Below are positions 15,801-42,692 of a DNA stretch of 43,583 nt, piece by piece. Position 1 is the stretch's first letter, and every line of letters begins with the position of its first letter. This stretch comes from a virus (Duplodnaviria > Caudoviricetes). Below the pieces are notes generated by a model. That model did not search any database. It had not been told where the DNA came from and saw nothing but the letters and a program-made list of their open reading frames with translations. The DNA lies in the IMG/VR virus record IMGVR_UViG_3300024344_000036, positions 1 to 43,583 of that record; one strand, written 5' to 3'. The position numbers and the translations under genes are program-made.

Positions 15801-18800
15801 GAGAGAGGTGTACAGGTAGCATACAATGCAGTACCACAACTTAGACCTAACTTAAATAGAAATGATTCTCTTAACTACGTGTTACATCATGAGGTTATGC
15901 ACTTACTTAGAACAGAAGGATTCTTTACAAAGAATGAATACTTAGCTTTAGAAGAAGCTGCAAAAGATAGATGGATTAAACAATATAAAATAGCAGAGCG
16001 TCATCCAGAATTAGATAGAGCTACACAAATAGAAGAAGCTATCTCTGATGCTTTTGCTGAATACATGACAGGCAGATACCAAACTGGTGGACCAATCGCT
16101 AAAGCATTTAATAGACTTAAACAATACTTAATAGCATTAGGTAATGCATTAACAGGTAACAGATTTGATACAGCTGCTAATATATTTAACGCAATAGATT
16201 TAGGATTAGTGGGGGCACGTTACGAAAGCATGCAACGTACAACTAATGTATATTTAACAGGCGATAATGCAACAAGTATTATAGTTAAAAATCCGTACAG
16301 TGGAGCAGACATAAGAGGATTCGTTCCTAAGACTAGAGCTTTATTTACAAAACAACCTAACATAACTAATGTTAAACAATTCTTTAAATGGTTTAATAGT
16401 GGTGGCAGACCTAGTGCAATCGTTGACACAAAAGGTGCCCCCTTGATTGTATACCATATCACTCTTGATACAAGAGATTCACAACCCAAACCTGTAAATG
16501 TTAAACTATGGCAGACAGGATTACAAGAATTTTCTAGTGCTGATACTTCAATTAATCAAGTTAGACTTCCTGCAGCTTTTAATAAATTAGCTAGAGAAGA
16601 AGTATGGTTAGATTTTTTTGATGAAGGTGGAATAAACTTTGATATTGGTGGTGGAAGATTTGATAATGCTACAAATTTTTTAGAAGATTATAATGTTACA
16701 AACATTGTATATGATCCTTTTAATAGAAGTGATGAGCATAATAAAAATGCTGTACAAAAAGGAGCTGATGGCAAAGCTGATACTGTAACTATTAATAATG
16801 TATTAAATGTTATACAAGAAGAAGCAAATCAAATGCAAACTTTAGAACAAGCATATAATGCTTTAAAGGTTGGAGGTGTAGCTTACATAAGTGTATACGA
16901 AGGAAACAAAACTGGACAAGGTAAACAAACTTCTAAAGGATGGCAAAATAATAAATCATTAAATGAGTATGTACCTTTAGTTAGAAAAGTATTTGGTAAA
17001 AATAATGTAATAGTAAAGAATGGAATTATAAGAGTAACTAAAACAAATGATAGAGCACCAAGACAACTAGTTCCTTTCACTACTTTTAGAGAAACAGCAG
17101 ACTTTGGTTATCATTTTACTCCTGATCAAAATGTTATAGATTACTTTAAAGAGAACCAATATTCTGGAGGAAATGATTTTGTTTTTAAAGGATTCTTAAA
17201 TATAAAAAATCCGTATCGTATGCCTGATATGTTATCATGGGATGAAAATGATATGATAGCGTATATGCTAGAAGATGGAATAATTTCTGAAAGAGAATCT
17301 ATTACCATGCGATCACAAATAGATAGTATACCTTTTCCGTTTGATGACGAAGGTAATATGATTAGTGAAGTTAGAGAACAACCAAGACAAGCAAGTTATA
17401 ATATTATTCTTAGAAAATTAAAAGATAAAGGTTATGATGGTGTAGTATACAAGAACATAGGTGAAGATAAATATAAAGCTTTAAGAAGTAAAGCACAAAA
17501 AGATAATACTTTACTTACTGATGAAGAAATTAAATTATTATTAGACAATCCTGTACAAGATTCTTTTGTAGCATTTGAACCACAACAATTTAAATCTGTA
17601 TACAATGACGGGACGTATGGTATACGTCAACCGAACATGATGGCTATGAATCAATGGCAACCTGTACCTGGCGAAAAACCAGTTGATAGGTACAAGCCTA
17701 TGAACAGGCAACAAAGACGTGCCCTTAATGCTAAGATGGGCAAGGCTATGGATGAAGAAGTTAAGCTTTATGATAAAGATACTACAACTCTTACACCAAA
17801 TAAACTTAGCAAGTTTAGTAGAATAGCTGGATTTATTAGAGAGTGGGCTAAAGACAATGCATTCTTTGAAAGAGTATGGCGTGTCGTAGAAGACATGACT
17901 ATTAGAGCTAAAAGAATACAAGCTAACTACCAACGTATATTAAATAATTATAATAGAATAATTCAAGATGATGTACTTCGTGAACTTATATATAGAGCAC
18001 AAGCTATCTCTACTTATTATCCTGATCAAAGATTTACAATGGACACAGAAGGTAGAATAATTTTCCGCGCACCTATGGATGCTAGTCCTGCTAACAGCCC
18101 TGAAGGATTAGAAATATCTCCTGGCGAAGTTATTATATTAGAAGGTGATGCGGCTCAAGCTTATATGGATTATCAAAGAGCTATGATGTACATGGCTAAA
18201 GAGCAAGTAAGAGGTATGATAGCTGGTGGTTATGTAGAACAAATAAAATCTGCTATTAATAAATTAAATTTTCACAAAGGTGTAGCCTTATCAGAAGCAT
18301 ATGTACCTAACTTCCCACCTGACATGACTAATGAAATGATTGAGAACATGGAGTATGGTGAAGTAATACAATTAGTAAAAGGTTTAAGAAGATTATTAGA
18401 AAATAGTGATGCAGAATTTGTAGACAGATCAGCATTAACTCCAATTGAAATAGCAGAAATACAAAGTTTATTAGGTATAGATAATAATGAAGTAGTAACT
18501 GACAGAGCACAAGTAGGTTTAGTTAAACTAGCCGCACAACTTAAAAAGTTTGAAGACTTTAAACGAGCAGACTATGTACCTCTTATGAGATACGGTAAAT
18601 TTGTTGTAAGTATTGTAGATAAAAATCAAGAGCAATATAATAAAGCTGAGGCTACAGACAAGGGGGCATTTAAATATAAAGGTAAGTATGTAACTTTAAA
18701 TCCTAAGTACTTGTTACGTCGTCAGCATTACGAAACTAAAAAAGAGGCGGATGAAGCTAGAGCAAGATTTACTAGTCAGTACAGAGAAGATGTAGGTGTA

Positions 18801-20879
18801 GAAGTTCGACCTGTTATGGAATTAAATGAAGATAAATTAAAAGAACAATTAAGACAAGGTGCTATTACTATAGTAGATGTAGCGCAATACTTGAGTGATC
18901 CTAAAGCAGAAATATTTAAAGCTGTTGAAGGTGAGTTAAATGATTTAATTAAAAATAATAAAAACATTGCAGACTTCGATCAGTTCTTTGTACCAAGACA
19001 AAGAGTAGGTGGTGTACCAGGATATAGTCCTGACTTTGCTAGAGCTGCTAATCAGTTTGGTTACATGGGTGCAAGGTATGCATCACGTAGTAGATTTATG
19101 AACGAGGCTGAAGAAAAGAAAAAAGTTTTAGAAGAGTATGTAAAAGAAAGTAATGATAAACAAATGGGTATTGCTTTAGATAAGTGGTGGAACTACAGCA
19201 ATGATCCTCATCAAGAGTTTGCACAGATAAGAAGACTAGGATTCTGGTGGTACTTAGGGGGCAACTTATCATCTGCTTTCTTACAAATATTCTCAGCGGT
19301 ACAATTTACAGGACCTATACTATCACAGTTTACTAGTACAACTCAAGCTGGTACACAGTTAACTAAAGCATTAGCAGATGCTACAGCTATGTTATCATTT
19401 ACAGAGAATGAATACGGTGATGTCTTTATAGATTGGAATAAAACTCCAGAAGATGTTAAGCAAGCTATACTAAATGATATGCCTCATTACATTAAACAAG
19501 GTCAAGCACTGCAAGAAACAGGACAAGATCCGGGTGTAAAAACTTTAGATGAAAAAACTGCATTACGTAATTTTGAAACTATGGTTATTGGAGGACCATT
19601 TAATACAATGGAAGCTATATCTAGATTGACTGCATACATGGCAACATATAGATTAGCACAAGACCCGGAAGTTAGAGACAGATTCTACAAAATGTTTGAA
19701 GGAGATCAAATAGTACAAGGAATGATTAATGATAATGGTGGGGTATTAACACCAGAGATTATAGCACGTACTATGATTGATGATACGTTTGGTGTGTATG
19801 GTAAGATGAATAGACCACAAATTATGCGTGGCTTCATGGCTGTACCTGCCTTATTCCAAACATATATTGGGCAGATGTTTGCCTTAATGAATAGACTATT
19901 AACTAAAGGCAGTACACCAGAACAAAAAGCTGCGGGAAGAAAAGCATTCGCTAAAATTATGTTGATGCTTGTATTGACAGGCGGTATCTTTGGATTACCA
20001 GGATCAGATGATGCAGAAGAAGTAGCTAACTGGATGATTGAAAAAGCACCTATCGTAGGAACAGGATTAAAAACTGATATGCGTGCGGCTATGAGAGAAA
20101 TGTTATATGAAGCAGGCTTTGGCGCAGGATTAATTAATGCAATGGAAAATGGTTTAATAGAAGCTAGTTTAAATATAGATGTACAACGTCGTATATCTTT
20201 AGGTAATGTACCAGGTTCACAACAGATACGTGCAATAGCAGGACTGTTAGGTTTAACCCCGGGCGGTAACCCAGCAGATTTTGCGGGGGCACCTGGCTCT
20301 GTGTTTATGACAGCCATCAGAGAAGGTAGCCAAGCTATACGTGAAGGAGAATCTTTAGTTGATGTAGCATTTAAATCGTCACCTTTATTTGTACGTAACT
20401 TATACAAAGCTTATGATCAATCATTAGGTAAAGGATTTGTTGAAACAAATTACGGTAGTGTATTAGTAGATGACGCAAGTGTATTTGAAACTATGTATCA
20501 AGCTATGGGATTTGGTTCAGCTAGAGCAAAGAGATCACGTGAAGCTTTATACCAAGAGAGATTAAATCAAACTCGTAATAGTAATAAAAGAAAAAAAGTT
20601 AATGCACAAATTACAAATGCATACAGAGATATATTTGTTGGTGCTAAGATAGGTGATAGTAGTCTATCAGCTAAAGGTCAGATAAGATTAAATGAATTGA
20701 CTAGAGATTTGTTTGCATGGAATGCTAAACAAGATATAGAGAATATGATTTTCCCAGACTTAGAAAGACTAGTTGAGTCAGCATTAGAAGCAGTGTATAA
20801 TGATATACGAATTGCTAATCAAAGCGGATTAAATATACAGAAAAATATAACGCAAAGAAAAGCGTTAGGTCTTGAGTAA
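12810..20879 (+). CDS. Giant polyvalent/internal virion protein (HExxH peptidase, ART-PolyVal-like, SAM-MTase, PLxRFG)
   Basis: HHEVMH (~15885-15902); FKWF...IVD..G.PLIVYH, GYHFT, LNIKNP, GYDGV, AFEPQQFKS; DIGGGRFD/YDPFN/NVLNVI; YVPLMRYG (~18573-18596). Confidence 0.75.
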   Translation: MTQVKYITFGDSGAPRIKVDASLSNEEIKDLLKSEKIETAMAEKGFAYKFGLDPVYLLDEDNLNDNAFVAGAKSSIDTLKQIGQGAMATIYDAFGAETLQQQAIEAVKQYQLDQTAHQWRRGAGGEVKPRFQSLEQVFESEQEFSAFLEWAGAKLGEGLVTTIPFVLAGIVTGGVGAGAIGAGLIAKQAGTSALRQAFTQGLIGQTGKGIIGGALNRATTMSGLGFMAAGYGFGAGDTYVNQLAESDDPNVAIALAAGIPYAAAEGAFGAGNLLLDTLIRKTSPTAVKGALEKIIKDGGKYSINKTIKGAARGDRLKALGKGIGVSSAGEATAESIQEAVTSTGQEIESGRSLSEMYSSADFWKGIGEAAAAGAVGGGPFGVVGGTAQALRVGPSVDITIDAGGERVIVPIVNSDIRNNESLYDSFVVGDTVTLTGAPVSEIIAGPTQQPSNESFDQGDPTNNPTPIYTVIGDTKIGNEEFILLEGTSGKADVFVPAGRKNSILRLDNGTINNNKFNNSAGFNYDQEESQDVNLDAKEVQESWAKNKKSWKQKGYVATDTDKAVDEYLAQEKEEWVADNTATLINQREEQRNQETLYTIWDENHRVRQPRFAMFYEDGDWENGAELPKEEAIGTVDGFYSKYDAIADEDLKDAFENEGWQQQRYNTLQEYVENEGNQLTKDERNELNELGYNGEFGQSYIQDLVDDTTVIGNSKLTRGRRRLEQILNDKVRFETETKGIRERKEKIITGENIIEPLTPEERQSQLGEGIFDTPVGDRVRQIRELLHLLDPKGWSWITGLERKQLAQLKREKSAYLLSNDMTKANATQRQIDRIKRKAHVIMHNGKIVGTYSPVARRVALEEIQRLTDPEEIAIYETHVSNIDKGRVRLNELLMTFNEEPVLSTEWGTLTTRDARLKRIEKKTRNFSFSEPTSYIRKYELWAKNAGEPRLQDDFADNAPKVLETMKQIISGMNLDVKIDLLPWIEQDGQALAGKFILGERGVQVAYNAVPQLRPNLNRNDSLNYVLHHEVMHLLRTEGFFTKNEYLALEEAAKDRWIKQYKIAERHPELDRATQIEEAISDAFAEYMTGRYQTGGPIAKAFNRLKQYLIALGNALTGNRFDTAANIFNAIDLGLVGARYESMQRTTNVYLTGDNATSIIVKNPYSGADIRGFVPKTRALFTKQPNITNVKQFFKWFNSGGRPSAIVDTKGAPLIVYHITLDTRDSQPKPVNVKLWQTGLQEFSSADTSINQVRLPAAFNKLAREEVWLDFFDEGGINFDIGGGRFDNATNFLEDYNVTNIVYDPFNRSDEHNKNAVQKGADGKADTVTINNVLNVIQEEANQMQTLEQAYNALKVGGVAYISVYEGNKTGQGKQTSKGWQNNKSLNEYVPLVRKVFGKNNVIVKNGIIRVTKTNDRAPRQLVPFTTFRETADFGYHFTPDQNVIDYFKENQYSGGNDFVFKGFLNIKNPYRMPDMLSWDENDMIAYMLEDGIISERESITMRSQIDSIPFPFDDEGNMISEVREQPRQASYNIILRKLKDKGYDGVVYKNIGEDKYKALRSKAQKDNTLLTDEEIKLLLDNPVQDSFVAFEPQQFKSVYNDGTYGIRQPNMMAMNQWQPVPGEKPVDRYKPMNRQQRRALNAKMGKAMDEEVKLYDKDTTTLTPNKLSKFSRIAGFIREWAKDNAFFERVWRVVEDMTIRAKRIQANYQRILNNYNRIIQDDVLRELIYRAQAISTYYPDQRFTMDTEGRIIFRAPMDASPANSPEGLEISPGEVIILEGDAAQAYMDYQRAMMYMAKEQVRGMIAGGYVEQIKSAINKLNFHKGVALSEAYVPNFPPDMTNEMIENMEYGEVIQLVKGLRRLLENSDAEFVDRSALTPIEIAEIQSLLGIDNNEVVTDRAQVGLVKLAAQLKKFEDFKRADYVPLMRYGKFVVSIVDKNQEQYNKAEATDKGAFKYKGKYVTLNPKYLLRRQHYETKKEADEARARFTSQYREDVGVEVRPVMELNEDKLKEQLRQGAITIVDVAQYLSDPKAEIFKAVEGELNDLIKNNKNIADFDQFFVPRQRVGGVPGYSPDFARAANQFGYMGARYASRSRFMNEAEEKKKVLEEYVKESNDKQMGIALDKWWNYSNDPHQEFAQIRRLGFWWYLGGNLSSAFLQIFSAVQFTGPILSQFTSTTQAGTQLTKALADATAMLSFTENEYGDVFIDWNKTPEDVKQAILNDMPHYIKQGQALQETGQDPGVKTLDEKTALRNFETMVIGGPFNTMEAISRLTAYMATYRLAQDPEVRDRFYKMFEGDQIVQGMINDNGGVLTPEIIARTMIDDTFGVYGKMNRPQIMRGFMAVPALFQTYIGQMFALMNRLLTKGSTPEQKAAGRKAFAKIMLMLVLTGGIFGLPGSDDAEEVANWMIEKAPIVGTGLKTDMRAAMREMLYEAGFGAGLINAMENGLIEASLNIDVQRRISLGNVPGSQQIRAIAGLLGLTPGGNPADFAGAPGSVFMTAIREGSQAIREGESLVDVAFKSSPLFVRNLYKAYDQSLGKGFVETNYGSVLVDDASVFETMYQAMGFGSARAKRSREALYQERLNQTRNSNKRKKVNAQITNAYRDIFVGAKIGDSSLSAKGQIRLNELTRDLFAWNAKQDIENMIFPDLERLVESALEAVYNDIRIANQSGLNIQKNITQRKALGLE

Positions 20880-25479: not shown

Positions 25480-25562
25480 TGTATCCCCGCTGCTTGTAAT
25501 AGTAGTCCACCTGTAATCGTTATTACATAAGCGGTGACTACAATATCTAAACCTATTATCAT
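25476..25562 (-). CDS. 28-aa hydrophobic peptide (not in ORF track)
   Basis: MIIGLDIVVTAYVITITGGLLLQAAGIQ; ATGA overlaps at both ends; RBS GAGG. Confidence 0.6.
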   Translation of the reverse strand: MIIGLDIVVTAYVITITGGLLLQAAGIQ

Positions 25563-26557
25563 AATACCTCCTCTAAAATTGAATGCCCTATTGCGTAAGG
25601 TATAGCGGGCACTAAACTATTACCTAGTCCTTTAAGTCTGTCCACCCTTTTGGGTATCCCATTAGCCACTCGACCCACGTTGGGTTCAAACTCCCACCAG
25701 CGCTCCCAGCTAGACGTCCCTTTTGTCTTGCCTTCTCGTAATTCACGTTCGGTCCCGAGTCCTTGTAGTCTCTGGCTGTCGGTGTCGGTAGCTTCTGCCA
25801 TAAGCGAGGCTCCCTCACTTGATCCATTAGTCTGACTTGAATTGGTTGACCACTGGGTCTCTTCAGATGTCCCTGATCCAATGCTATCTTTATACCAGGT
25901 AGATTCGATCCTCCTGCCATATTGTCTGGAGTCCTCCATAGCATAACTGTGTTCGGATCTACTTGCTCTCGCAGATTCCCTGGCTTTGTTCTCCCTTTGC
26001 GTGTAGTTGTTGCCTGTTTCATCAATGACTCTTGACTCCGCTGTGGAAGATGATCCATTGTGTTCGGAGTAGCCCACAGTCCAGACTCTTTCTCTTTGAT
26101 GGTTTGCGCCGACGCTCGAAGCTGAAATACTAAACGCCCTAACGGTGTAACCTTCACTCTCCAAGTCCTGTAGTACGGTGTCGAGACCGAGTTTAATGTG
26201 TCCACTAACGTTTTCTCCAATGACCCAAGTCGGTTTACATTCTTTGATAATCCTAAACATGTCTGGCCAGAGGTGTCTCTTATCTTTTTCACCACGTTGG
26301 CTACCTGCGACGGAGAATGGTTGGCAAGGATATCCTCCCGTGATAATGTCAATGGGGGCAAGCGTGTCTTCTTTGATTTGCTCATACGTTAACTCCTTTA
26401 TATCTTTATATTGTTTTATATTAGGCCAGTGTTGTTTTAAAACTTTACGTGAGAATTTTTCTATATCACAGAACGCTACTGTTTCAAATCCTCCCGTTGC
26501 CTCAAGTCCTAAACTAAATCCACCGAGCCCACTAAATAAATCTAAGTGCCTAAGCAT
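25559..26557 (-). CDS. C5-cytosine DNA methyltransferase, catalytic polypeptide
   Basis: DLFSGLGG (I), GYPCQPFS (IV), ENV (VI), QRERVW (VIII), LGNSLVP (X). Start at the TAATG overlap with nrdA. Confidence 0.92.
   Translation of the reverse strand: MLRHLDLFSGLGGFSLGLEATGGFETVAFCDIEKFSRKVLKQHWPNIKQYKDIKELTYEQIKEDTLAPIDIITGGYPCQPFSVAGSQRGEKDKRHLWPDMFRIIKECKPTWVIGENVSGHIKLGLDTVLQDLESEGYTVRAFSISASSVGANHQRERVWTVGYSEHNGSSSTAESRVIDETGNNYTQRENKARESARASRSEHSYAMEDSRQYGRRIESTWYKDSIGSGTSEETQWSTNSSQTNGSSEGASLMAEATDTDSQRLQGLGTERELREGKTKGTSSWERWWEFEPNVGRVANGIPKRVDRLKGLGNSLVPAIPYAIGHSILEEVL
25624..26385 (-). CDS. Overlapping-frame MTase partner polypeptide (motif IX-like + TP repeats)
   Basis: 253 stop-free codons nested in the MTase gene; LWATP/LWRTP/LPTP repeats; LNPTWVEWLMGYPKGWT. 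Confidence 0.7.
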   Translation of the reverse strand: MSKSKKTRLPPLTLSREDILANHSPSQVANVVKKIRDTSGQTCLGLSKNVNRLGSLEKTLVDTLNSVSTPYYRTWRVKVTPLGRLVFQLRASAQTIKEKESGLWATPNTMDHLPQRSQESLMKQATTTRKGRTKPGNLREQVDPNTVMLWRTPDNMAGGSNLPGIKIALDQGHLKRPSGQPIQVRLMDQVREPRLWQKLPTPTARDYKDSGPNVNYEKARQKGRLAGSAGGSLNPTWVEWLMGYPKGWTDLKD

Positions 26558-28320
26558 TATGCTTGACACATTACACATGACTCTTCGTCTTCCATGCTAT
26601 CCTCTCTGACTTTACGCTCTACTTTAACAGAGATATTTTCTGCCCTCTTAATCGCCTCACTGCGACAGTAGTATAGAGTCTTTAGTCCTTTTTCCCACGC
26701 ACGTTTATGTATGTTATTTAATCTTCTAACATTTACATCTGGTGGGAAGAATAAGTTTAATGATTGCGCTTGACAAATATATTTTTGACGTTCGCCAGCC
26801 AAGTCCACAATCCACGATTGGTCAATCTCGATGGCTGTTTTAAATAAATTTTTCTCTTGCGACGTGAGGAACTCGAGCGCATCGACAGATCCTCTATTAG
26901 AAATAATAGTCTTCCAAACATCTTTAGTATTCTTTCCTTTTGATTCAAGCAATTCTTCTAAGTATTTATTCTTAACTAAGAAAGAACCACTCATAGTTTT
27001 TTGTGTAAAGGCGTTGGCTCTTAAAGGTTCTATGCTAGGAGATACACCACCGCATATAATAGAGCTACTTGCATTTGGTGCAATAGCTAACATGTGTGCA
27101 AATCTTTTACCACTGCCCTTCATGTCACTTGGCTCGCCTCTTGTCTTACCTAATGATAGATTAGATTCTAATGCTTTATCATGTAAGTGTTTAAATATAT
27201 TTTTATTAATACCAAAAGACATAGGGCTATTGAAAGCTATACCTTTTCTTTGTAGGTATGAATGGAAACCCATAGCACCTAAGCCAACAGATCGTTCTGC
27301 TTTTGCTGAGGCTACTGCTCTCCATAAATGAGAGGGGGCATTCTTAATAAAATATGTAAGTACGTTATCTAACATACGCATGATGTCATCAATGAATTGT
27401 GTATTATCTTTCCACTCATCATAGTATTCCAGGTTAACAGATGATAAACAACATACTGCAGTACGTTCATCGTTGGTTGGCAGGGTAATCTCACTACATA
27501 AGTTAGAGTGATGTACCTTTAAACCTTTGTCTTTTAATTCTTTTGGTAACCCTTTATTAACTGTATCACTAAACATAATGTATGGCTCACCTGTTGATAC
27601 TCTTGTCTCTAGTATCTTAATCCATAGTTGTCTAGCTTTAACTTCTCTTATAACTTTTTTATTATGTGGGTCAATCAGTTTCCACATCTCATCTTTCTCT
27701 AATGCTTTCATGAATTTATCTGGTACGTTTATTCCATGATGTAGATTAAGATTCTTTCTATTCACATCACCACCACTAGGCTTACGCATTTCAATGAACT
27801 CTATTATCTCTGGGTGAGATATGTCCATGTAGCTGGCATAGCTCCCACGTCTTGTTGCCCCCTGGTTAAACGCAACCATCTGACTATCAACTACATGCAT
27901 GAAAGGTATAACTCCTGTTGTCTTATTACCTTTACTAGTAGATTGATCCTGCGACCTTATGTCACCCCAGTATCCACCGATACCACCTCCTGAACTTGAC
28001 AACCAAATATTTTCTGCGTAGTGTTCTGATAAACCTTCACGAGAATCGGGTACATAATTTAAGAAGCATGAGATAGGTAGTCCTCTATCTGTACCACCAT
28101 TTGATAGCACGGGTGTAGCAAACATGAACCATAGCTTAGATGAATAATCATATAGTCTTTTAGCATGGGCATCTGAGTCTGCAAAAGCTGCGGCTGTTCT
28201 AGCTAGTGCTTCCTGGGGAGATTTTTCTTTGGGTAACATGTATCTATCTTTTAAAACTTCTTTACCGAATACAGTAAGAAGGTCGTCTCGTGCGAGATCA
28301 ATCGTTGGTTTGTCAGTCAT
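26557..28320 (-). CDS. nrdA: Ribonucleotide reductase class I alpha subunit, no ATP cone
   Basis: ATP.L.N, SCF, SNLCSEI, CCLSS, APNAS, TLYY and C-terminal CVMC. Confidence 0.95.
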   Translation of the reverse strand: MTDKPTIDLARDDLLTVFGKEVLKDRYMLPKEKSPQEALARTAAAFADSDAHAKRLYDYSSKLWFMFATPVLSNGGTDRGLPISCFLNYVPDSREGLSEHYAENIWLSSSGGGIGGYWGDIRSQDQSTSKGNKTTGVIPFMHVVDSQMVAFNQGATRRGSYASYMDISHPEIIEFIEMRKPSGGDVNRKNLNLHHGINVPDKFMKALEKDEMWKLIDPHNKKVIREVKARQLWIKILETRVSTGEPYIMFSDTVNKGLPKELKDKGLKVHHSNLCSEITLPTNDERTAVCCLSSVNLEYYDEWKDNTQFIDDIMRMLDNVLTYFIKNAPSHLWRAVASAKAERSVGLGAMGFHSYLQRKGIAFNSPMSFGINKNIFKHLHDKALESNLSLGKTRGEPSDMKGSGKRFAHMLAIAPNASSSIICGGVSPSIEPLRANAFTQKTMSGSFLVKNKYLEELLESKGKNTKDVWKTIISNRGSVDALEFLTSQEKNLFKTAIEIDQSWIVDLAGERQKYICQAQSLNLFFPPDVNVRRLNNIHKRAWEKGLKTLYYCRSEAIKRAENISVKVERKVREDSMEDEESCVMCQA

Positions 28321-28390: not shown

Positions 28391-28882
28391 TCATGTTAAG
28401 TTCCTTAAAAATAATGTCGAGTATTCAAACTTTTGCTCTTGACAAAAGACATCATCTAGTGTCTCAACTAAATCTAACTTTAAATTTTTATCCAGGTTCT
28501 TTACTACCTGCACCATTCTGATTTCTACCTGTGGATAAATCCTTTCAAGTATAGGACGATACAAATAATTAAGTTGAACCCATGCTTTCCTAGTTGCTTT
28601 AAGCTTACACTCTAGAACCAGGATAAATTTGCGGCTGCTATTAGGCAGAACTATAATGTCAGGCTGACACCATCCAAGCCCACGTCTGTCCTCGTACTCA
28701 TACCATTGTCCATGTAGTACTTCTTCCCCATATAAAGCCTTGATGTAGTTAGCTATCCTATTCTCATAGATGAGCCCAGCTCTCTGGATACCCTTGATTC
28801 TTGGAGAGGAGATGAATCTAGGTTTACCCTCGAGAGCCTTCGCCCAACGTAGACCTCGGATTATATTGCGTCTTTTCTGCAT
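28391..28882 (-). CDS. PD-(D/E)XK nuclease (resolvase-like)
   Basis: G..YE, QPDIIV, VLECK and QL..LY motifs. Confidence 0.7.
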   Translation of the reverse strand: MQKRRNIIRGLRWAKALEGKPRFISSPRIKGIQRAGLIYENRIANYIKALYGEEVLHGQWYEYEDRRGLGWCQPDIIVLPNSSRKFILVLECKLKATRKAWVQLNYLYRPILERIYPQVEIRMVQVVKNLDKNLKLDLVETLDDVFCQEQKFEYSTLFLRNLT

Positions 28883-30126
28883 AGGAATACCAATTCAGAT
28901 TCGACACGGATATAACCAGAGTCTTCCATAGCTTGGATGTACTGTGTAATCTCCCCGGGTGCCATAGTCTTGTTCAAAAGTTGCCGTTTAAACAGCTTCA
29001 GACGCACGTGAGAGCGGTTATTGTTAAACACAGTAGTCTCCAACCAACCTTTCATATCATGAGCAATTTTACCAGTCTTACTCATGCCAAAACCTTCTAA
29101 TGCCTTAGGCATATTCTTCTCTACATCAAACATAATCTCTTTAGTAAGAGCCCAATCACTAGCTGTAATTACCCTTGTTCCTCTACGTGAGGCAGATATA
29201 GACATAGCTACCTTGATAAAGTGGGATACTCTACGTTGATTGTACTCGATCATGTTAGGATCGGTAGGTTCTGGTTGTATATATTCTTGAAAATCTTTCT
29301 CGACTTCTTCATGTACCTCTGCATCAAAGACAAATTGCCCGTGCATTTTAGCTATCATACTGAGGTCATGTGTTAAGTCTTCGGCTATACTATCATCAAT
29401 TCTTTTCTGATGTAAGCTTTGTGCTATCCTATGTCCTTCATGATAGATAGGTAGTATCCTAGATAACAACCCTTGTGAAGCCGCATCCTCTGGTAAGTTA
29501 TCCACAAACTGTTGAGGTGTGGCACATGCTATCCAGTTAAGACAAGGACCTTTAATAAATTGTGATGAGCCTGTTTTAATTTGGTGACTGTAAGAATCCT
29601 TACTATCCCACATGTCAGTCATAAACATCTGTAAGTAGTTATGATTTCTATTCATGAACGTACCGAACTCTGATGTACATAATGTAAGTGATGAGTCATA
29701 GAACATATCTTCTTTAGGTGTAGCACAACGTAAGTCTAGTCGTGTAACCTTAGACATTTCTACTGCTAATTTTTCTGGTGTAATTCTATCTTGTATAATA
29801 TGTAATGGGTAATTCTTTAAACCATATCTTGTTAAGCCACTGTTAAATTCATCATGATCTTCTTCTGTACCTACAGGTGTAGTAAGTTTAGCAAAGACTT
29901 TTGAGAACGGCAAGATGAGCGAGACAGATTTGTTTCTACCTGGTGGTGCAACTAGTACAACAAACATGTTAGGTCTGATATCATAGTTAGTCATAGACAA
30001 CCAACACTTACGACCGAGTGCTCCAGCCACAGCAGAAATTGCTGTCCATGTAGAGAACCTATCTGGTATCGGACTACCTGTTGTAGCCTTTACACATGCC
30101 TTAATAAAATCTGTATTCTTACGCAT
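28861..30126 (-). CDS. DUF3987-like P-loop ATPase (probable helicase)
   Basis: PNMFVVLVAPPGRNKS (Walker A-like), TPEKL, SEFG, WD, GLLSR. Confidence 0.7.
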   Translation of the reverse strand: MRKNTDFIKACVKATTGSPIPDRFSTWTAISAVAGALGRKCWLSMTNYDIRPNMFVVLVAPPGRNKSVSLILPFSKVFAKLTTPVGTEEDHDEFNSGLTRYGLKNYPLHIIQDRITPEKLAVEMSKVTRLDLRCATPKEDMFYDSSLTLCTSEFGTFMNRNHNYLQMFMTDMWDSKDSYSHQIKTGSSQFIKGPCLNWIACATPQQFVDNLPEDAASQGLLSRILPIYHEGHRIAQSLHQKRIDDSIAEDLTHDLSMIAKMHGQFVFDAEVHEEVEKDFQEYIQPEPTDPNMIEYNQRRVSHFIKVAMSISASRRGTRVITASDWALTKEIMFDVEKNMPKALEGFGMSKTGKIAHDMKGWLETTVFNNNRSHVRLKLFKRQLLNKTMAPGEITQYIQAMEDSGYIRVESELVFLCRKDAI

Positions 30127-31666
30127 TGGCTACCCATTTCTTTAAGTTTTTCCAAGAGTCCCCTACCTCTGCATCAGAAGGTATTATCATACTTCTTCCT
30201 TTAACATCAATAGGATTTTCTAAACAATCAATTACCTTAGGAATTAAATAGTCTACCTTATCATTAGGACATTGACCTAAGACTGCGTCATGCACCTGTC
30301 CTAATATTTCTACACCTTCTTGGAACAACTCAGACCATACTCTATATAATCCTTTGTTAAGTAAGTCACCGATAGTAGATTGCGGAAGATAGGCTATAGC
30401 TTTTCTTGCATAGTGTTCATCATCTAACCTACCCCAGAATTGTCTGCGTCTACCGAATGGTGTAACTAAGTTACCTGTTGATTGTAGTTCTTTAATAACT
30501 TCTGTGTGCCATGTTCTTATTCCAGGAAATGCCCCAGCTACACGCACAAGTACTTGCGTGCCCGATCCAATCTTCTCTCCTAGTTCCATGAGTTCGTCGA
30601 AGCCCCCTTTCTTATCCTGTTTATGCCAACGTTCTAACGAGGCTAGTGGTACAACACCACCAAAGTATAAGAGTTGGAATCTTGTAGCATGTGCTACTTT
30701 AATCTTTGTATGTCTTGCTACTGTATTAGCTGACGCACCGTAGTTAGTACCATGACCAGCCCTCTTACATACATCACGATAAGAAAAGTTTCCATAGTAA
30801 GGTCGCTCGGCTAGTGTTCTATTCTGTGCATTGTCTTCTGTCCAACCCATGTTAGGCCAAACCATTTTAGCTACCTCAGTGTGTAGGTCTGATGATTCAA
30901 CAGCGTTGATATAACCTTCATCACCTGAGAGGTATGCCGTTGCCCTGGATTCAGCTGCTTGTAAGTCGGCATAGAACATGGTACGTCCTCTGTCTGGTAT
31001 GAACATAGCCCGCAAGTCCTTTGTAATATTCTGTAAGTTTGTACCTGTTCTCCAGGGACTTTCTGATGATGACCACCTGCCAGTCTCAGTACCCGCTACA
31101 TTATATGAGCAACGGATACGACCGTCTTCATCACGTTTAGAAGCTAAGACTGATAACTGTTTATCTATATCACGCAATGCAATAATAGTTTTACAGAAAG
31201 GACGAGCACGAGGATACTCTTCTATCATATGTTCTAAAGCTTCACGATCAGTAGAAACTTTCTGTTTCCCTTTGTCGTATTTAATTTGTACTGGAAGATT
31301 CAAGTACTCATAGAGCATGGACTTGAGTTGTGTTGGACTGTTATGGTTAAGGTCTTTATCCCATACAGCATTAGCAAATAGACTTAACATCCTAGCTAAT
31401 TGTAATCTTTTCTTTTGTAAGGGGGCACGAATAATTGTGACTGCCCTTTCATCTACGCGTAAGCCACGTAGTACCATAGAGATTGCAGGTCCTAAGCTTG
31501 CTCTCTCAAATTCGTATGTCGATTTAGTAAAGTTGTCTAGTTGTGGGGAAAGTTTATTCCAAATTTCTGTAGTAAGTGTACAATCTAATCCACAATAAAC
31601 CCATAGAGTTTGTTCTTCATTAAGTTTTAAATTCTTAATCTCTGTGTTCTTTATTATCCTCGCCAT
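30119..31666 (-). CDS. polA: Family A DNA polymerase, C-terminal part (ExoIII + polymerase)
   Basis: YCGLD, TETGRWSS, NLQNI, ADLQAAESR (A), R...KRAGHGTNYG (B), QVHD (C); has its own RBS. Confidence 0.92.
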   Translation of the reverse strand: MARIIKNTEIKNLKLNEEQTLWVYCGLDCTLTTEIWNKLSPQLDNFTKSTYEFERASLGPAISMVLRGLRVDERAVTIIRAPLQKKRLQLARMLSLFANAVWDKDLNHNSPTQLKSMLYEYLNLPVQIKYDKGKQKVSTDREALEHMIEEYPRARPFCKTIIALRDIDKQLSVLASKRDEDGRIRCSYNVAGTETGRWSSSESPWRTGTNLQNITKDLRAMFIPDRGRTMFYADLQAAESRATAYLSGDEGYINAVESSDLHTEVAKMVWPNMGWTEDNAQNRTLAERPYYGNFSYRDVCKRAGHGTNYGASANTVARHTKIKVAHATRFQLLYFGGVVPLASLERWHKQDKKGGFDELMELGEKIGSGTQVLVRVAGAFPGIRTWHTEVIKELQSTGNLVTPFGRRRQFWGRLDDEHYARKAIAYLPQSTIGDLLNKGLYRVWSELFQEGVEILGQVHDAVLGQCPNDKVDYLIPKVIDCLENPIDVKGRSMIIPSDAEVGDSWKNLKKWVANA

Positions 31667-31976
31667 TATCTCTCTCCAATTGTTTCTTATGTAAGTCTTC
31701 CACTCGTTCTCCTATTTCACGAGCGATCGCCATGTAAGCTGAAGCATCCAGGTATGTATCCTCTGTTCGAGATCCTTGCTTCAGTCTTGCTATCTTTAAT
31801 AGACACATCATAACTGCTACGTCATGTGGGTTTATTTGAAAGTTAGTATATGCTGACCATAAATTTGCTATGTTAACATGGTTAATTAATTTGTCTCCGT
31901 AATCTACTTGCCTGTCTCCACTGACAAGTTCACTTGCTTTTTTTAGTAACTCTGAACTTCTCCCTGTTGTTGTCAT
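31635..31976 (-). CDS. DUF6378-like phage protein
   Basis: GDRQ.DYG, IANLWSAY, DVA.MM.LLKIAR, DTYLD..AY. Confidence 0.7.
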   Translation of the reverse strand: MTTTGRSSELLKKASELVSGDRQVDYGDKLINHVNIANLWSAYTNFQINPHDVAVMMCLLKIARLKQGSRTEDTYLDASAYMAIAREIGERVEDLHKKQLERDNGEDNKEHRD

Positions 31977-32244
31977 ATTCTCCCTCCTTATATTTGTCAA
32001 ACTCTTTTCTTGCTCGTTGATGGTCTACTGCTGCTAAGTCACATACGAATTTAAACTCGTCGTACTTATACTTCAACCACTTCTCGACTTCTTCTTTGTA
32101 CTTCAAACCATCTTTGGACTTGCCTTTGTATGCATAGTCTTGAACAGCTTGATCTAATACGGCTCGCCATAAGTTGTAATGGTTTGCTATATCTACTGAA
32201 TCCTCTGGCATTGGCTTTACCGAGAATAACTCTGATCGTTTCAT
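31930..32244 (-). CDS. Conserved-looking phage hypothetical protein
   Basis: LWRAVLDQAVQD...W...F..VCDLA motif. Confidence 0.7.
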   Translation of the reverse strand: MKRSELFSVKPMPEDSVDIANHYNLWRAVLDQAVQDYAYKGKSKDGLKYKEEVEKWLKYKYDEFKFVCDLAAVDHQRARKEFDKYKEGEYDNNREKFRVTKKSK

Positions 32245-32246
32245 GT

Positions 32247-33350
32247 TTACTCATCTGCTTTGGTACTCTTTGAAAACTTGGCTAGTGTTTTCCAAGCACT
32301 CTCATTGGTGTATATCGAGCCTAAGAAACCTAAACCTTTTTCTTGTTCTGGTTGCAGTGAATGTTGTGCGTGCATGGTATCATGTATGATACCTTTAACA
32401 TGTATCTTTTGTTTGTGTGCTAACCATGACACGTCGTATAATTGATTCTGTGCAACCTTAACTATCTTATCGTTCTCAAGAATATCTTTAACCCATTTCC
32501 AGGCAGTGATCTCATCAGCTGCATTCCAATAGTTTTGAGTGTCCGTATTCTTATCACGAAAAGGTACTACGATTGTAGTGTTAGGTGTAGGTGCAAAGCC
32601 TATGCATACGATAGAGCCTTCTGCTGTTTCAATATCGAATGCGAGAGGGTTGTTATGATTTGCTTCACTAATATATTTATTATAGAATACATCTAAGTCT
32701 TCGATGGTAGGTTCTATCCATACCTCTCTGACTGTGTGTTCTAGTTTTTTAGTTAGAGATTCTTGCTTAGCTTTCTGTAAATCAGCTACAACATGAGGTC
32801 TCCACTTGAAATTTTTAACGACAGAAACAGGACTGTATGTTGGTAGTACTTTATAAGGTGTAGGTAGAAGCTCAGTTATCAACGTGGCTCCTCTGTTCTT
32901 ACCAATCTTAGCTAGTCCTGTTACTGCCCACAAAGATACTGAACCCATTGCGATAATGATATTTGGATTGGCTTCTTCTATTTCTTTGTGTAACCTTTGA
33001 ATGTCTTGCTCATATTCTTGCTTAAGATATCCTTCACTTGTTGGGGCGTAAGGTGAACGCCACTCGGTTGTCTTGCATAATCTTTTGTATTCACTTCTCT
33101 TATGAAAGAAGTATTGTGCTGTGTTCTGGTGGGGTTTTAATTGTATAGTGTGGGTGAGTAAACAGTTGTCGAGGTTGATACCTGCAATGTCACAGAGTTC
33201 GGCAAATACTTTTCCCGTGCCCCCACGCAGGATTGTATTAGCGATTGTTTCACTGTTGGTAGGGTACTCGAATACGAACGCAATCTTACAAGCCTCGGCT
33301 GATTGAGGCTTGCGTGATGATACTCGTTTGTATACTGCATACTCACCCAT
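32247..33350 (-). CDS. UDG-like domain fused to a partial 3'-5' exonuclease (N-terminal part of the polymerase)
   Basis: AFVFEYP...E, G.TG, EI...NPNIIIAMG, PTYSP; then AFDIET (ExoI), QNQLYD (ExoII), HDTM. Start reassigned to ATG 33350. Confidence 0.8.
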   Translation of the reverse strand: MGEYAVYKRVSSRKPQSAEACKIAFVFEYPTNSETIANTILRGGTGKVFAELCDIAGINLDNCLLTHTIQLKPHQNTAQYFFHKRSEYKRLCKTTEWRSPYAPTSEGYLKQEYEQDIQRLHKEIEEANPNIIIAMGSVSLWAVTGLAKIGKNRGATLITELLPTPYKVLPTYSPVSVVKNFKWRPHVVADLQKAKQESLTKKLEHTVREVWIEPTIEDLDVFYNKYISEANHNNPLAFDIETAEGSIVCIGFAPTPNTTIVVPFRDKNTDTQNYWNAADEITAWKWVKDILENDKIVKVAQNQLYDVSWLAHKQKIHVKGIIHDTMHAQHSLQPEQEKGLGFLGSIYTNESAWKTLAKFSKSTKADE

Positions 33351-33354
33351 AGGA

Positions 33355-33795
33355 CTACTTCTTAATAATCCTTTTGATGGATGCTTGAAGTATGTCCTTG
33401 TTTCTGCCAACCATTTCATGCTTGACAATACCACTAAAGGTCTGACCGATTGCTTGTTCAAGCAACTCACTGAACGACGAACCGTCATCCATTTCCAATC
33501 CCTTTAATAGAAAGGCTTTCAATGACAAAGCTGGATTGCTTTGTTGCATTGCTTTTGGTGTAGCCCAGAACTCAATACGAGTTGGCTCGGCATTTACCAA
33601 ATCCGAATCTGCTAAATCAGATTGGATCACACCAACGGCTTTACAATTCATGCGTACCAATGGTGTTTGATTTTCCCCCACCTTATCCGAACGATAAGAA
33701 GTGATAGTGAAATCGTAGCTACCCTCAGGCAACGTTACGGATTCAGGTATTTCACCTGGGGTCATGTTTAAAAAGTCTAAAACATCTGACATCAT
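33355..33795 (-). CDS. Probable single-stranded DNA-binding protein (DUF669-like)
   Basis: LPEGSYDFTI motif; follows a Sak4-like ATPase. Confidence 0.55.
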   Translation of the reverse strand: MMSDVLDFLNMTPGEIPESVTLPEGSYDFTITSYRSDKVGENQTPLVRMNCKAVGVIQSDLADSDLVNAEPTRIEFWATPKAMQQSNPALSLKAFLLKGLEMDDGSSFSELLEQAIGQTFSGIVKHEMVGRNKDILQASIKRIIKK

Positions 33796-39728: not shown

Positions 39729-40379
39729 CTACGCTGCCGCATCAACTCTTTCCTGGATAATGTTTCTCCATAGTGGGTTTATCATGTCGTGATGTTCCCA
39801 CCATGTATGTGCTGTTGCCCCCTCATTAAAGATTTGATGGTGTTGATTGAGACTTAATCTCATAGCTTTGACAGGGTGTGGTTGATAGTACATAGGTCTA
39901 CCTAATGTATTCCCATTACCTTGCATGTTCCATGTAGGAAATTTTCTGTGGCTTTCATATCTGAATGTGCCATGTGAATCGGGATTAGCTTTGACCAAAT
40001 CAAATGTACCATTGTCTTGATAAGACTTGCATAGACTAGGGTATGATTGCCAGAATGTAGCACCATACCGATAGAATAGTTTGTTGACTAGACTATTCAC
40101 TTTTCCTTTGCTATCTGATATTACATTATCGTAGTCCTCTTGCGTTAGTTCAGTACCTTTGATAGCTATACCATAGTCATTGTCGGTGTATAGTGAGAAA
40201 GGTTTTCGGCGAAACGAAGTTTTCTCTGGGTCAAAGGGGTGTTGACACACCCCAAATTGTACATCTTTTAAATAGACTTGTCTAATTAGTGTTGTCCACT
40301 TTAACTTATTAGACCCACCACTTCTGGTAGTTATCTCATAAAAGTTTTTAGTTTCTAAATCAAATCTAAATATAGTCAT
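39729..40379 (-). CDS. Hypothetical protein
   Basis: 216-aa ORF directly downstream of the GATase. Confidence 0.75.
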   Translation of the reverse strand: MTIFRFDLETKNFYEITTRSGGSNKLKWTTLIRQVYLKDVQFGVCQHPFDPEKTSFRRKPFSLYTDNDYGIAIKGTELTQEDYDNVISDSKGKVNSLVNKLFYRYGATFWQSYPSLCKSYQDNGTFDLVKANPDSHGTFRYESHRKFPTWNMQGNGNTLGRPMYYQPHPVKAMRLSLNQHHQIFNEGATAHTWWEHHDMINPLWRNIIQERVDAAA

Positions 40380-40380
40380 G

Positions 40381-41301
40381 CTACTTCCCTTCCTTTACTT
40401 CCATGTTGTATACTAAGTCGTTAACCCACTTAGCTGTACCTGTTGGATTCTCTATGATGAGGTCATAGATTTCTTCTGCTGTCAGACCATAAAAATCATT
40501 CTCATCTATATCAGTTCCATTTTCATGTATGTCTCTTGGTGGATTGACATAGTTCTTGGTAGTGTTGTTACTCTCTATACCTCTACGATATATTGGTGTA
40601 CCAGAATAATGACCCATGCCACCATAACCCCAATCATCATCTTCATAAGTCCACTTGTTCTCTATCTTTTTTAGAGTGTCAGTATCTTCATCATACTTGT
40701 AATCTCTAGACAAAGCATAGTTACCTCGTGGCTCTAATGAGTATGTGTTTGACAACCACATATCATCTGTGGTCTTGCCTTGTTCCTCGTTGATGATAGT
40801 AAACTCCTCTGTCTTACTATCCAGGAATAAGAGCTTGTCGCTACCAATCATATCAGACAACATCTCTTGCCAATCTGGATTGTATAGTAACTCTGGCTCA
40901 TTGAGTAGTTGTGGTCTGAGTACCCACTTGACAAACTGATGAGTGTCAGATTTGTTACTGTCAATCATAGGTGTAGGTAACTGAGGTCCGTTGTGCATGA
41001 GCCATATATCTCTGTTACTCTCCTCTTTAGTTAGTACTTGGTAAGGGTGCGACATAGCTTTGCTTGACTCCCCATTGGTATTGAATCTGAAATGTAAACC
41101 CATAGGCACATCTAGATTTTTGTAGCTATCCCATAGCTTGTTGATAGATTTGAATGACTTTGGCTTACCCAATTTGTGAACATGGACTTTGCCTTTGTTG
41201 GCAAACATAAGTCCAAACCCATCATCATTATTTAAGTATGCACAGTTCATCATATTCTCTGTGATAACTTCTGGTTTTGTAGCTTGTATAATTAAGCACA
41301 T
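40381..41301 (-). CDS. Class II (Ntn) glutamine amidotransferase
   Basis: N-terminal MC, N.DGFG, HFR..T, HPY, MHNG, SDT. Confidence 0.9.
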   Translation of the reverse strand: MCLIIQATKPEVITENMMNCAYLNNDDGFGLMFANKGKVHVHKLGKPKSFKSINKLWDSYKNLDVPMGLHFRFNTNGESSKAMSHPYQVLTKEESNRDIWLMHNGPQLPTPMIDSNKSDTHQFVKWVLRPQLLNEPELLYNPDWQEMLSDMIGSDKLLFLDSKTEEFTIINEEQGKTTDDMWLSNTYSLEPRGNYALSRDYKYDEDTDTLKKIENKWTYEDDDWGYGGMGHYSGTPIYRRGIESNNTTKNYVNPPRDIHENGTDIDENDFYGLTAEEIYDLIIENPTGTAKWVNDLVYNMEVKEGK

Positions 41302-41319
41302 AATATAACTCCTTTTCAG

Positions 41320-42528
41320 TTAAGCTATTTCTTTTAGATTGTTCTGCTCATCAGACCAATCAACACTACGACTTGGCTTACCTATGCAATAGGATTTTCT
41401 TGTTAGCCAACCATAGAATATCTTATACTCACTTCTATTTTGTGGTAACTCCATGTATCTTATGAAGTCTTTATAAGATAGTTTTGTCATGCTCGTAGTC
41501 TTACTAAACCCTACTAAAGCATGGACAAATTCCATTACTCTAAACAAACCTTGCTTTGCAAGATTGCCCTTGAATATTCTAAACTCTATTGTATGTCGGT
41601 GCGACATATTGACAGCCTCATATTTCTCAGATGAATTGACAGCATCAGAAATCTTTTTGCTAGATTTCTTTGCCCATTGGTCTGAATTGCGACCTGCAAT
41701 ATGATTCACAAACTCCTCATTTTTGTAGTCATTGATAAAGACAAGTAGCTTACCAATATCAAGCTGTGTTAAATGATTTCTTGATATGTGTATGTGCATA
41801 CCTGTTGTATCAGTATTCCAGGATTTGAGGTGCTTGATTGCAGCTCCATTTAAAAATGTATCCCAATTCTCTCTATGAGCATTGAGTGTGGCTGGTGCTG
41901 TAACAATCTCAAAGCCATTGGATAGTGAGCCATCAGATTTCATAATAGCAAACTGACCTGTCTTACCATTGTAAAAATCATTGTGTGTCATTTCTCCAAT
42001 CTCATAAGGACAATTATTTCTCCTCTCAACTTCTAACTCTACACCCATATAGAGAGGGTATAGTTCTGTCCTGTCCTTGTCTGATACTTGGTAACTACAA
42101 TGCGACATTACATCTTCATTGTATTCATAGATATAATCATCATGCTGTGATTCAGATTCCTCATCATAATAATCATCTTCGCTTACATAGGTATCTCTAT
42201 TTTCTGAGTATATGTAATTGTCAATACAACTAGAGCATATTGGATTATCCTCATAAGCCCACCTTATATCATCTTCATATTCCCAAGCACCACAATCCTC
42301 ACACTTATAGAATCTGTCAATGACATCACCAAAAAGATTAGTGAGCCTTCTGTATCTTGTCATATCATTTCTTATGAAATATCTTGATAACATTCTATCA
42401 ACATCATTAAGTAAATCAACTTCAATATCATACTCATCAAGTCTATCCTCATATTTTAAGCCATATAAATATGAGTATATAGTTTCATTGTTATACTCGG
42501 TACTTCTTAGTTCTGATAGTAAAGTCAT
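41320..42528 (-). CDS. COOH-NH2 ligase (amidoligase) with N-terminal CxxC..CxxC
   Basis: GVELEVE, DGSL, GFEIVT.P, GMHIH, Y.AVN, TIEFRIF. Start at the ATGA overlap. Confidence 0.88.
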   Translation of the reverse strand: MTLLSELRSTEYNNETIYSYLYGLKYEDRLDEYDIEVDLLNDVDRMLSRYFIRNDMTRYRRLTNLFGDVIDRFYKCEDCGAWEYEDDIRWAYEDNPICSSCIDNYIYSENRDTYVSEDDYYDEESESQHDDYIYEYNEDVMSHCSYQVSDKDRTELYPLYMGVELEVERRNNCPYEIGEMTHNDFYNGKTGQFAIMKSDGSLSNGFEIVTAPATLNAHRENWDTFLNGAAIKHLKSWNTDTTGMHIHISRNHLTQLDIGKLLVFINDYKNEEFVNHIAGRNSDQWAKKSSKKISDAVNSSEKYEAVNMSHRHTIEFRIFKGNLAKQGLFRVMEFVHALVGFSKTTSMTKLSYKDFIRYMELPQNRSEYKIFYGWLTRKSYCIGKPSRSVDWSDEQNNLKEIA

Positions 42529-42692
42529 TTTGTACCCCACTTGTTTAATAGTTCGTTAGTGATTGCCTGTTCCTCTTGAATAGACAACTCATCAATATCT
42601 GAGTCCAGGATTTGTTCGTCTAACATTTCCTGCTGTTCTAAAACCCAGTCAGTAAAGCTCATAGTTCTTTTAGTATCTGATTTAATAGGCAT
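42525..42692 (-). CDS. 55-aa acidic protein (not in ORF track)
   Basis: MPIKSDTKRTMSFTDWVLEQQEMLDEQILDSDIDELSIQEEQAITNELLNKWGTK; RBS AAGGAG. Confidence 0.7.
   Translation of the reverse strand: MPIKSDTKRTMSFTDWVLEQQEMLDEQILDSDIDELSIQEEQAITNELLNKWGTK

Follow-up and report, generated by a model that had tools for sequence, protein, structure and literature searches.

We analysed a family A DNA polymerase (PolA) that is encoded in two genes on the virus record IMGVR_UViG_3300024344_000036 (Duplodnaviria; Caudoviricetes). The whole record, 43,583 nucleotides (nt) long, is called the window here. Its minus strand carries one gene for a uracil-DNA glycosylase (UDG)-like domain joined to most of an exonuclease domain (the UDG-exo gene, or N-half) and a separate gene for the polymerase domain (the Pol gene, or C-half). 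The two genes contain the following features; the three Exo motifs were placed by sequence, conservation and alignment to Klenow.

32247..33350, minus strand: N-half gene, 367 amino acids (aa); family-4-UDG-like domain (about residues 20-200) and most of the 3'-5' exonuclease domain
32712..32738, minus strand: residues 205-213 of the N-half (strand E209-W211), the predicted partner of the new Pol N-terminus
32625..32639, minus strand: ExoI, FDIET (D239, E241)
32433..32450, minus strand: ExoII, QNQLYD (N302, D306)
32247..32294, minus strand: new C-terminal tail of the N-half, W353 to stop; low predicted local distance difference test (pLDDT) values from residue 360, nonsynonymous divergence (dN) near 0, outside the confident interface
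30119..31666, minus strand: C-half gene, 515 aa; ExoIII helix and family A polymerase domain, His305 at the PolA-762 position
31643..31666, minus strand: new Pol N-terminal peptide MARIIKNT, marked by the pattern [KR]-I-I-x-T and by the complex model
31583..31597, minus strand: ExoIII, YCGLD (Y24 and D28 of the Pol gene)

The C-half is a family A DNA polymerase. It matches Pfam PF00476 (DNA_pol_A; E 8e-40, 137 bits against a cut-off of 34) with motifs A, B and C, can be aligned to Klenow, and has D234, R297/K301/Y309 and H459-D460 conserved. The N-half matches UDG (E 2e-5) and DNA_pol_A_exo1 (E 7e-10) in Pfam, and its fold search matches family-4 UDGs, the phiLo polymerase 9QHS and Klenow. Its likely start is ATG 33350, because homologues begin at M-G/S-E-Y and are about 367 aa long; the start of the longest open reading frame (ORF), at 33488, overlaps the upstream 146-aa gene and is ruled out by the homologue starts. 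The N-half gene holds ExoI and ExoII and terminates in WKTLAKFSKSTKADE. From this stop it is 580 nt to the start of the Pol gene at ATG 31666, which has GGAG 7 nt upstream, and ExoIII begins 23 residues into the Pol gene. All three motifs of a DEDDy proofreading exonuclease are therefore present, but they are divided over two genes and do not lie on one polypeptide. The initial annotation had put ExoI and ExoII in a UDG-fused ORF ending at 32247 and ExoIII at the start of a separate Pol ORF with its own ribosome-binding site, and its coordinates proved right (FDIET 32639-32625, QNQLYD 32450-32433, YCGLD 31597-31583). When the family profiles were aligned to Klenow, the window motifs fell on its ExoI, ExoII and YAAED (ExoIII), which we take to be D355/E357, D424 and Y497/D501. 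Furthermore, the two ORFs, one after the other, cover the whole of the profile PHROG 17 (profile positions 472-788, then 794-1236). The three-motif requirement of proofreading exonucleases holds for family A as well. According to a passage of PMC6153641, written for family B, these exonucleases carry metal-binding aspartates within three conserved motifs.

Many relatives show the same cut. Loci were collected by scans with the window protein, by two alignments of distant relatives and by an alignment of single-chain relatives. The surveys of the split cover 315 loci with an exonuclease-profile match, which are redundant and were thinned to 73 split and 44 fused rows. Both gene ends were readable in 210 split loci, and 46 loci were fused by a strict pattern; the other 59 were excluded on account of truncation, the lack of a Pol start within range, or an ExoIII variant that escaped the pattern. 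The strict ExoIII pattern missed many fused loci, which were later reclassified: when the loci from the single-chain query were re-examined (n=76), 70 were fused across the loop, three were split, two were truncated and one was without the exonuclease. Of the 210 split loci, 208 have 20-25 residues between the Pol start and the ExoIII Tyr. The stop-to-start gaps of the split loci range from -4 to 1463 nt, 22 of the pairs being directly adjacent. None of the 80 loci from the window-protein scan was fused, and every one that reached the Pol start had the same cut. The cut is thus neither an assembly error nor a product of chance. Among the 1.84 billion 50%-identity representatives that were searched independently with a profile, the best 150 all end 5-21 residues after a conserved Trp and none of them carries ExoIII; a search of a 90%-identity database for longer N-half forms gave only four matches and is weak evidence. 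A survey of the split point in relatives, proposed in the initial annotation, thus found the window's cut in 210 of the 315 loci, including that of the cultured Caulobacter phage Kuura. Kuura has the same split layout with the N-half annotated as hypothetical, and passages of the Kuura paper name only a DNA polymerase (PMC9959647). The nearest single-chain kin found are proteins of about 800 aa with about 27% identity; Microcystis phage Mel-JY34 and Desulfofustis phage LS06 encode examples.

The DxE, NxxxD and YxxxD residues are kept in all 158 complete split pairs and in all 53 fused proteins. In seven pairwise comparisons, the ratio of nonsynonymous to synonymous divergence (dN/dS) was 0.07-0.16 for the UDG domain, 0.05-0.17 for the exonuclease domain, 0-0.03 for the tail and 0.06-0.09 for the polymerase domain, which indicates that both halves are under purifying selection. 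This split of a phage UDG-PolA, which runs through the proofreading domain, is real, old and widespread. No fewer than 150 protein clusters, many of them labelled simply 'uracil-DNA glycosylase', would each be half of a replicase.

The PolA-762 position (window 30752-30754, His305 of Pol) is His in 148 of the 158 split and 45 of the 53 fused relatives. The types named in PMC6302109 are Phe, Tyr and Leu, and Klenow has Phe; the window His is unlike these. A literature search on PolA-762 gave nothing relevant among the matches listed.

It had also been suggested in the initial annotation that the halves form a heterodimeric PolA whose exonuclease site is composite. The complex modelling that it had proposed came out in favour: the two-chain model scored 0.88, against 0.02 for the best control, and docked the ExoIII helix onto ExoI (contacts 237-29 and 239-29). 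The mark used for this score was reached by 116 of 157 solved and two of 215 mismatched pairs, counts that apply only roughly here. The model runs agreed in at least 91% of contacts, with partner pLDDT of at least 88. The modelled interface is made by residues 237-242 of chain 1, at ExoI, and by residues 16-40 (the ExoIII helix) and 1-8 of chain 2. The PolA of the phage is encoded by two genes, with the break in the loop that precedes the ExoIII helix, and the two proteins likely fold together into one replicase. In its proofreading site, the UDG-exo protein would supply the acids of ExoI and ExoII, and the Pol protein the Tyr and Asp of ExoIII. Residue conservation, selection, the complex model and the lack of an intron or intein signal all support this proposal, and a heterodimer with a proofreading site built from both proteins is most likely, with good confidence. 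It would be a natural family A polymerase that shares its proofreading site between two proteins, and the cultured phage Kuura makes the heterodimer testable.

The fission of an ancestral single-chain UDG-exo-Pol would have left new termini. From the conserved Trp to the ExoIII Tyr there are 19 residues in 32 of 44 fused proteins, compared with about 37 (15 + 22) in split proteins. The pattern [KR]-I-I-x-T at the Pol start is conserved in the split clade (in a looser form in 64 of 66) and absent in single-chain relatives. In the model, Pol residues 1-8 are part of the interface, with a contact 210-5 to the partner strand 205-215. Position 213 of this strand is Glu in 56 of 68 split proteins and Arg in 39 of 44 fused ones. 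The Pol start may thus have gained a short strand that pairs with the partner strand as a latch.

The UDG-like domain of the N-half has two altered motifs, whose residues are given against Thermus thermophilus UDG.

33249..33272, minus strand: degenerate UDG motif A, FEYPTNSE (G40=F27, E41=E28, E47=E34)
32829..32840, minus strand: degenerate UDG motif B, TYSP (the H155 equivalent is S173)

The fold N-terminal to the exonuclease domain is that of a family-4 UDG; the profile matches 1L9G and 1UI0 at E <1e-20, and Pfam and the fold search agree. In family-4 UDG structures, the aligned counterparts of FEYP and TYSP are GEGP and FHP. Further replacements are F54=L41, N80=H67 and, for the Fe-S cysteine, C84=L71; F54 and N80 are presumably uracil-pocket residues. 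The domain scores 42.7 bits, under the TIGR00758 cut-off of 125. By its residues and score the domain falls outside active family-4 UDGs, and its glycosylase activity has likely been lost. Motif A Glu and motif B His are described as the catalytic residues in the phiLo UDG-PolA in part of PMC13697223; no description of His155 was found in the literature. Among the 158 split pairs, 68 keep the full GE/E/F/N/H set, 81 keep the motif-B His and 77 are without it, and these 77 are the window's marine subclade, which is low in guanine plus cytosine. The full set is also kept by 33 of the 53 fused proteins (14 are without the His) and by 100 of the best 150 representatives. The UDG decay is thus later than the split and recurrent, as it is in N4-like polymerases. 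The degeneracy reported in the initial annotation thus holds for the window and the marine subclade, but it is not a property of the split. The pocket residues were lost yet purifying selection continues, so the marine UDG likely stays as a non-catalytic module, either gripping DNA or structural. A processivity role has been suggested for the inactive UDG of N4-like polymerases, in a passage of PMC10201439. It is doubtful, by contrast, that the marine UDG has been retuned and not disarmed, with N-to-H/Y and H-to-S changes giving a new base specificity or a sensing pocket. As would fit a retuned pocket, E28 (or D) and E34 are retained, the 77 loci agree in their replacements and dN/dS is about 0.1. 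However, none of the residues equivalent to F54, N80 and H155 is retained, nor is the Fe-S cysteine, and the replacements vary (H/Y; S/N/T; L/M). In addition, thymidylate synthase, Thy1 and dUTPase were each found in none of five related records, a weak point, as these records are 68-92% complete. A clade with intact and disarmed UDGs on one scaffold offers a direct test of the role of a UDG after catalysis is lost.

Two genes lie in the gap between the halves.

31930..32244, minus strand: 104-aa protein that belongs to no known family (WRAVLDQ...F.xVC..A); a fixed gene of this gap in the marine subclade and in the three nearest sister loci
31635..31976, minus strand: DUF6378 gene, likely ATG 31976, overlapping the Pol start (Pfam E 6e-27)

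The gap may have become a landing site for small genes after the fission. Its second slot is swappable, with DUF6378 in 38 loci and a phrog_236-type protein in 37. The initial annotation had called both genes ordinary; two genes are indeed present, but the 104-aa gene is not a casual passenger, as it lies in the gap of all 112 His-less split loci and of none of the 83 pattern-matched His-keeping loci. The motif-pattern survey left 15 loci unmatched, three of them with the 104-aa gene. A three-subunit enzyme in the marine subclade, with the 104-aa protein as a processivity or assembly accessory that is perhaps linked to the changed UDG, would add to the heterodimer and does not exclude it, but we consider it unlikely. 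Apart from the His-less loci, two observations favour it: the best 80 of 228 relatives include 74 new loci, in every one of which the gene lies in this gap (67 with both flanks, seven cut by a contig end), and the protein has 11 invariant columns at 46% mean identity. On the other hand, this survey covered only those best 80 of the 228 matches, the correlation with His loss is one inheritance event, and most split relatives, including Kuura, are without the gene. It is also present in three His-keeping sister loci (L222, L180 and L211), so it predates the UDG decay. Furthermore, the protein has no family or structure match (Pfam, PHROG, NCBIfam, PDB and cultured phages; in the Atlas only unnamed viral clusters). 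The 104-aa protein may serve as an accessory subunit, but it may also be no more than a neighbour that has been inherited for a long time. The fullest form of the proposal, in which a two-chain PolA with a strand latch would gain its site only on docking, and in which the marine enzyme would be a three-part replicase gripping DNA with its disarmed UDG and the 104-aa subunit, is likewise improbable as a whole. If such a replicase existed, proofreading could be tuned by subunit supply. Gap genes of other split loci (L201, L233, L234, L235 and L067) often belong to nucleotide metabolism: dCMP deaminase, nucleoside deoxyribosyltransferase, pyrophosphatase and polynucleotide kinase.

Still less probable is a reading in which the halves work separately or meet only briefly: the UDG-exo protein would be a free repair nuclease whose acidic tail stands in for ExoIII, and Pol a polymerase without proofreading. 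The N-half model folds confidently alone (AlphaFold2, pLDDT 92, low only from residue 360), conserved acids lie at the end of its tail, and the genes can lie more than 1.4 kb from each other. However, this same tail is of low confidence in the model, and the ExoIII helix is buried against the ExoI sheet with about 245 contacts. On the Pol protein the ExoIII Tyr and Asp never vary, which would be hard to explain if there were no partner site.

It is very improbable that the split exists only in the DNA and that RNA splicing, protein trans-splicing, a frameshift or a ribosomal hop restores one polypeptide. A frameshift is conceivable in 18 of the 210 split loci, where the genes overlap (-4 or -1). 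Group I introns are often found in phage PolA genes, according to part of PMC10580990, and two relatives, L004 and L237, are interrupted inside the polymerase domain. These two loci (L004:3995-7129 and L237:7968-11259) are fused at the exonuclease loop and broken just after the NLQN motif, with ORFs between. Against an intron-interrupted gene, Rfam gave no match at the gathering score in the window and only three chance matches at E up to 10 in 31300-32700. Gaps of at least 100 nt (186 loci) have a median coding share of 95%, and their 284 ORFs fall into 83 unrelated clusters. Contigs from RNA libraries span both gene ends unspliced, a weak point: X2 (32036-32375) crosses the exonuclease stop, X1 (30509-32050) and X2 (31600-31752) cross the Pol start, and the single joint listed lies outside the gap, so that none skips it. 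Pol is preceded by a GGAG/GAGG/AGGA site in 134 of 188 gapped loci. Neither gene end has room for intein domains: the conserved Trp is followed by 15 residues, and 23 precede the ExoIII Tyr. Pfam gave no intein match, and no split intein was found. Reading 'IIKN-T' as an intein remnant was rejected, because an N-intein is missing and the position that follows Asn is not constant, being Val in some relatives. The initial annotation had regarded a spliced or fused product as incompatible with the heterodimer; no intron, intein or spliced RNA contig was found. In three other relatives (L229:9405-11753, L234:10481-12838 and P0124), Pol is about 280 residues longer, likely by inteins, and these genes were excluded from the alignments.

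Several points weigh against the heterodimer with a composite site. The complex model may pass because the pair resembles single chains whose structures are solved (Klenow, phiLo 9QHS). Split-gene halves are able to pass in this way, and the model therefore supports but does not show binding. Binding and exonuclease activity are predicted, and metal positions are absent from the model output. The predicted Pol latch and the charge change at 209/213 would rest on one clade-level event. At the other new terminus, the C-terminal K-R-D-x of the N-half is partly the ribosome-binding site of the next gene, its Arg being coded AGG in 38 of 72; because these codons form that site, K-R-D is weak evidence for a protein latch, and reading it purely as a latch is weakened further by the position of residues 357-367 outside the confident interface. 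For the dead UDG, the proposed role is based on selection and on analogy with N4-like polymerases. The RNA contigs come from four of 23 listed runs and are weak evidence, as they may derive from DNA and drop rare forms.

The loop before ExoIII seems to have been cut more than once. Trees of each half were built with FastTree (117 rows), and the Pol half was also analysed with IQ-TREE (LG+G4, quick; 39 rows, three of them added single-chain phage rows); both kinds of tree are less reliable for long branches. The window lies in one split clade of 68 of the 117 rows, supported at 99 (Pol tree) and 83 (N-half tree). The starred branches force at least 4-5 state changes. In the approximately unbiased (AU) test, with groups that were named after a tree had been seen, a single origin of all splits was rejected (p 2e-38), as were the main clade joined with L236/L238 (p 2e-4) and with L279 (p 6e-34). 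L271 joined with L273 was not rejected (p 0.053), and these two share new termini. A single chain is the ancestral state for PolA. With this taken as given, the state changes in the trees suggest that the loop was cut independently at least four times. L236:7932-10872, L238:7941-10653, L271 and L273 are split in the same loop and have shorter new ends (9-11 residues before the ExoIII Tyr). L279 belongs to an otherwise single-chain lineage, and its gap (7028-7438) is filled wholly by an ORF for an HNH endonuclease (PHROG E 1e-35) that overlaps both halves. This is likely a recent fracture, a snapshot of one fission route. An endonuclease gene is also present in the gap of eight main-clade loci (seven HNH and one endonuclease-VII-like, from 80 gap proteins scanned); none was found in the window gap with Pfam and PHROG. 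A surface loop that tolerates repeated chain breaks is useful for understanding gene fission and for the design of split or switchable polymerases.

The 43.6-kb record has a podovirus-like structural arm and a replication arm on the minus strand. The latter runs in the order PD-(D/E)xK exonuclease, Sak4-like ATPase, 146-aa gene, UDG-exo gene, the two small genes, Pol, DUF3987 primase-like gene, ribonucleotide reductase (RNR) and C5 methylase. One neighbour gives context.

28861..30126, minus strand: DUF3987 primase/helicase-like gene, after Pol as in single-chain relatives

Directly after it, a 163-aa ORF (28391-28882) has a PD-(D/E)xK-like pattern (PD...ECK) and no family match in Pfam, PHROGs or NCBIfam. 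The C5 cytosine methyltransferase (25559-26578) holds, in another frame of the same strand, a nested 253-aa ORF (25624-26385) with WATP/WRTP/LPTPTARD repeats, which we take to resemble the overlapping second-subunit arrangement of some phage methylases. A 2689-aa virion/ejection-type protein (12810-20879) has an ART-PolyVal domain (E 3e-7) and a weak methyltransferase match, and an amidoligase-like gene (41320-42540) has two unannotated neighbours (39729-42540). A scan for promoters and terminators gave no signal above shuffles. Identity with HTVC023P-type pelagiphages was rejected, as the replication module differs and structural genes match at only 30-34%.

Split PolAs are known from other phages. 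The first was reported in S-SBP1-like T7-like cyanophages, in a passage of Czernecki et al. 2023 (PMC10201439). As in the window, a family A phage polymerase became two genes by fission and is predicted to form a heterodimer that matches the single chain. However, the S-SBP1 exonuclease gene (gp15), when translated, keeps ExoIII and ends YCIQD...SGSR, so its active site lies in one chain. Its cut falls after ExoIII, at the boundary of the exonuclease and polymerase domains, whereas the window cut falls before ExoIII and leaves it on Pol. The S-SBP1 genes are T7-like, overlap and have no UDG; those of the window belong to the UDG-PolA lineage and are separable by other genes. No T7-like phage was found among the best 60 of 1466 Pol matches. 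By sequence, the window polymerase is not a member of the S-SBP1 split type. What is new compared with the published split PolA is a cut through the proofreading site rather than at a domain boundary. A preprint (PMC13648687) reportedly deals with a split polymerase of a chimallivirus. In MEP401-type phages, the split lies inside the polymerase domain, according to part of PMC10580990, and bioRxiv 10.1101/325100 mentions that a T7-like cyanophage has a split polymerase, in passages without the cut site. CCPol-MP (Czernecki 2023) resembles the window in that its Pol chain keeps the C-terminal helices of the exonuclease domain and is predicted to bind its partner through them; CCPol lost the rest of this domain and has an unrelated partner, whereas the partner in the window is a true exonuclease core with all catalytic acids. 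The words 'uracil' and 'split' are not mentioned in Nasko 2018 (PMC6302109), and 'split' does not occur in PMC13697223. No description of a UDG-exo/ExoIII-Pol split was found in the literature, searched mostly without subscription papers or supplements; the supplements of PMC10201439 and PMC9959647 could mention the genes.

The window enzyme also resembles two other kinds of enzyme. Single-chain UDG-PolAs are described, in parts of PMC10201439 and PMC13697223 and with PDB 9QHS, for N4-like cluster 17 (inactive UDG), for SPO1/SP-10, as the initial annotation had said of the SPO1 type, and for the SP15-like phiLo/YerA41 (active UDG). They share with the window enzyme the domain order UDG (family 4)-exo-pol, and where the UDG is inactive it has been proposed as a processivity module; they are single chains, whereas the window has two polypeptides. 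The second kind is that of enzymes in pieces, namely Aeh1 NrdA-a/NrdA-b, split by mobE, and the T4-like gp43A/gp43B, in which an essential enzyme is made of two polypeptides with new tails and without splicing. Essential new tails hold the fragments of Aeh1 NrdA together (a passage of PMC3045599), and gp43A and gp43B co-purify and are active (a passage of PMC2988022; they are also treated in part of PMC2677866). As in these systems, a free-standing endonuclease lies in the gap in some relatives of the window, namely L279 and the eight main-clade loci. NrdA is an RNR and gp43 a family B polymerase, the window gap is without an endonuclease, and a function of the tail, shown for NrdA, is only predicted for the window Pol. 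By analogy with both kinds, the window enzyme most likely works as a UDG-PolA does, and as an enzyme in pieces.

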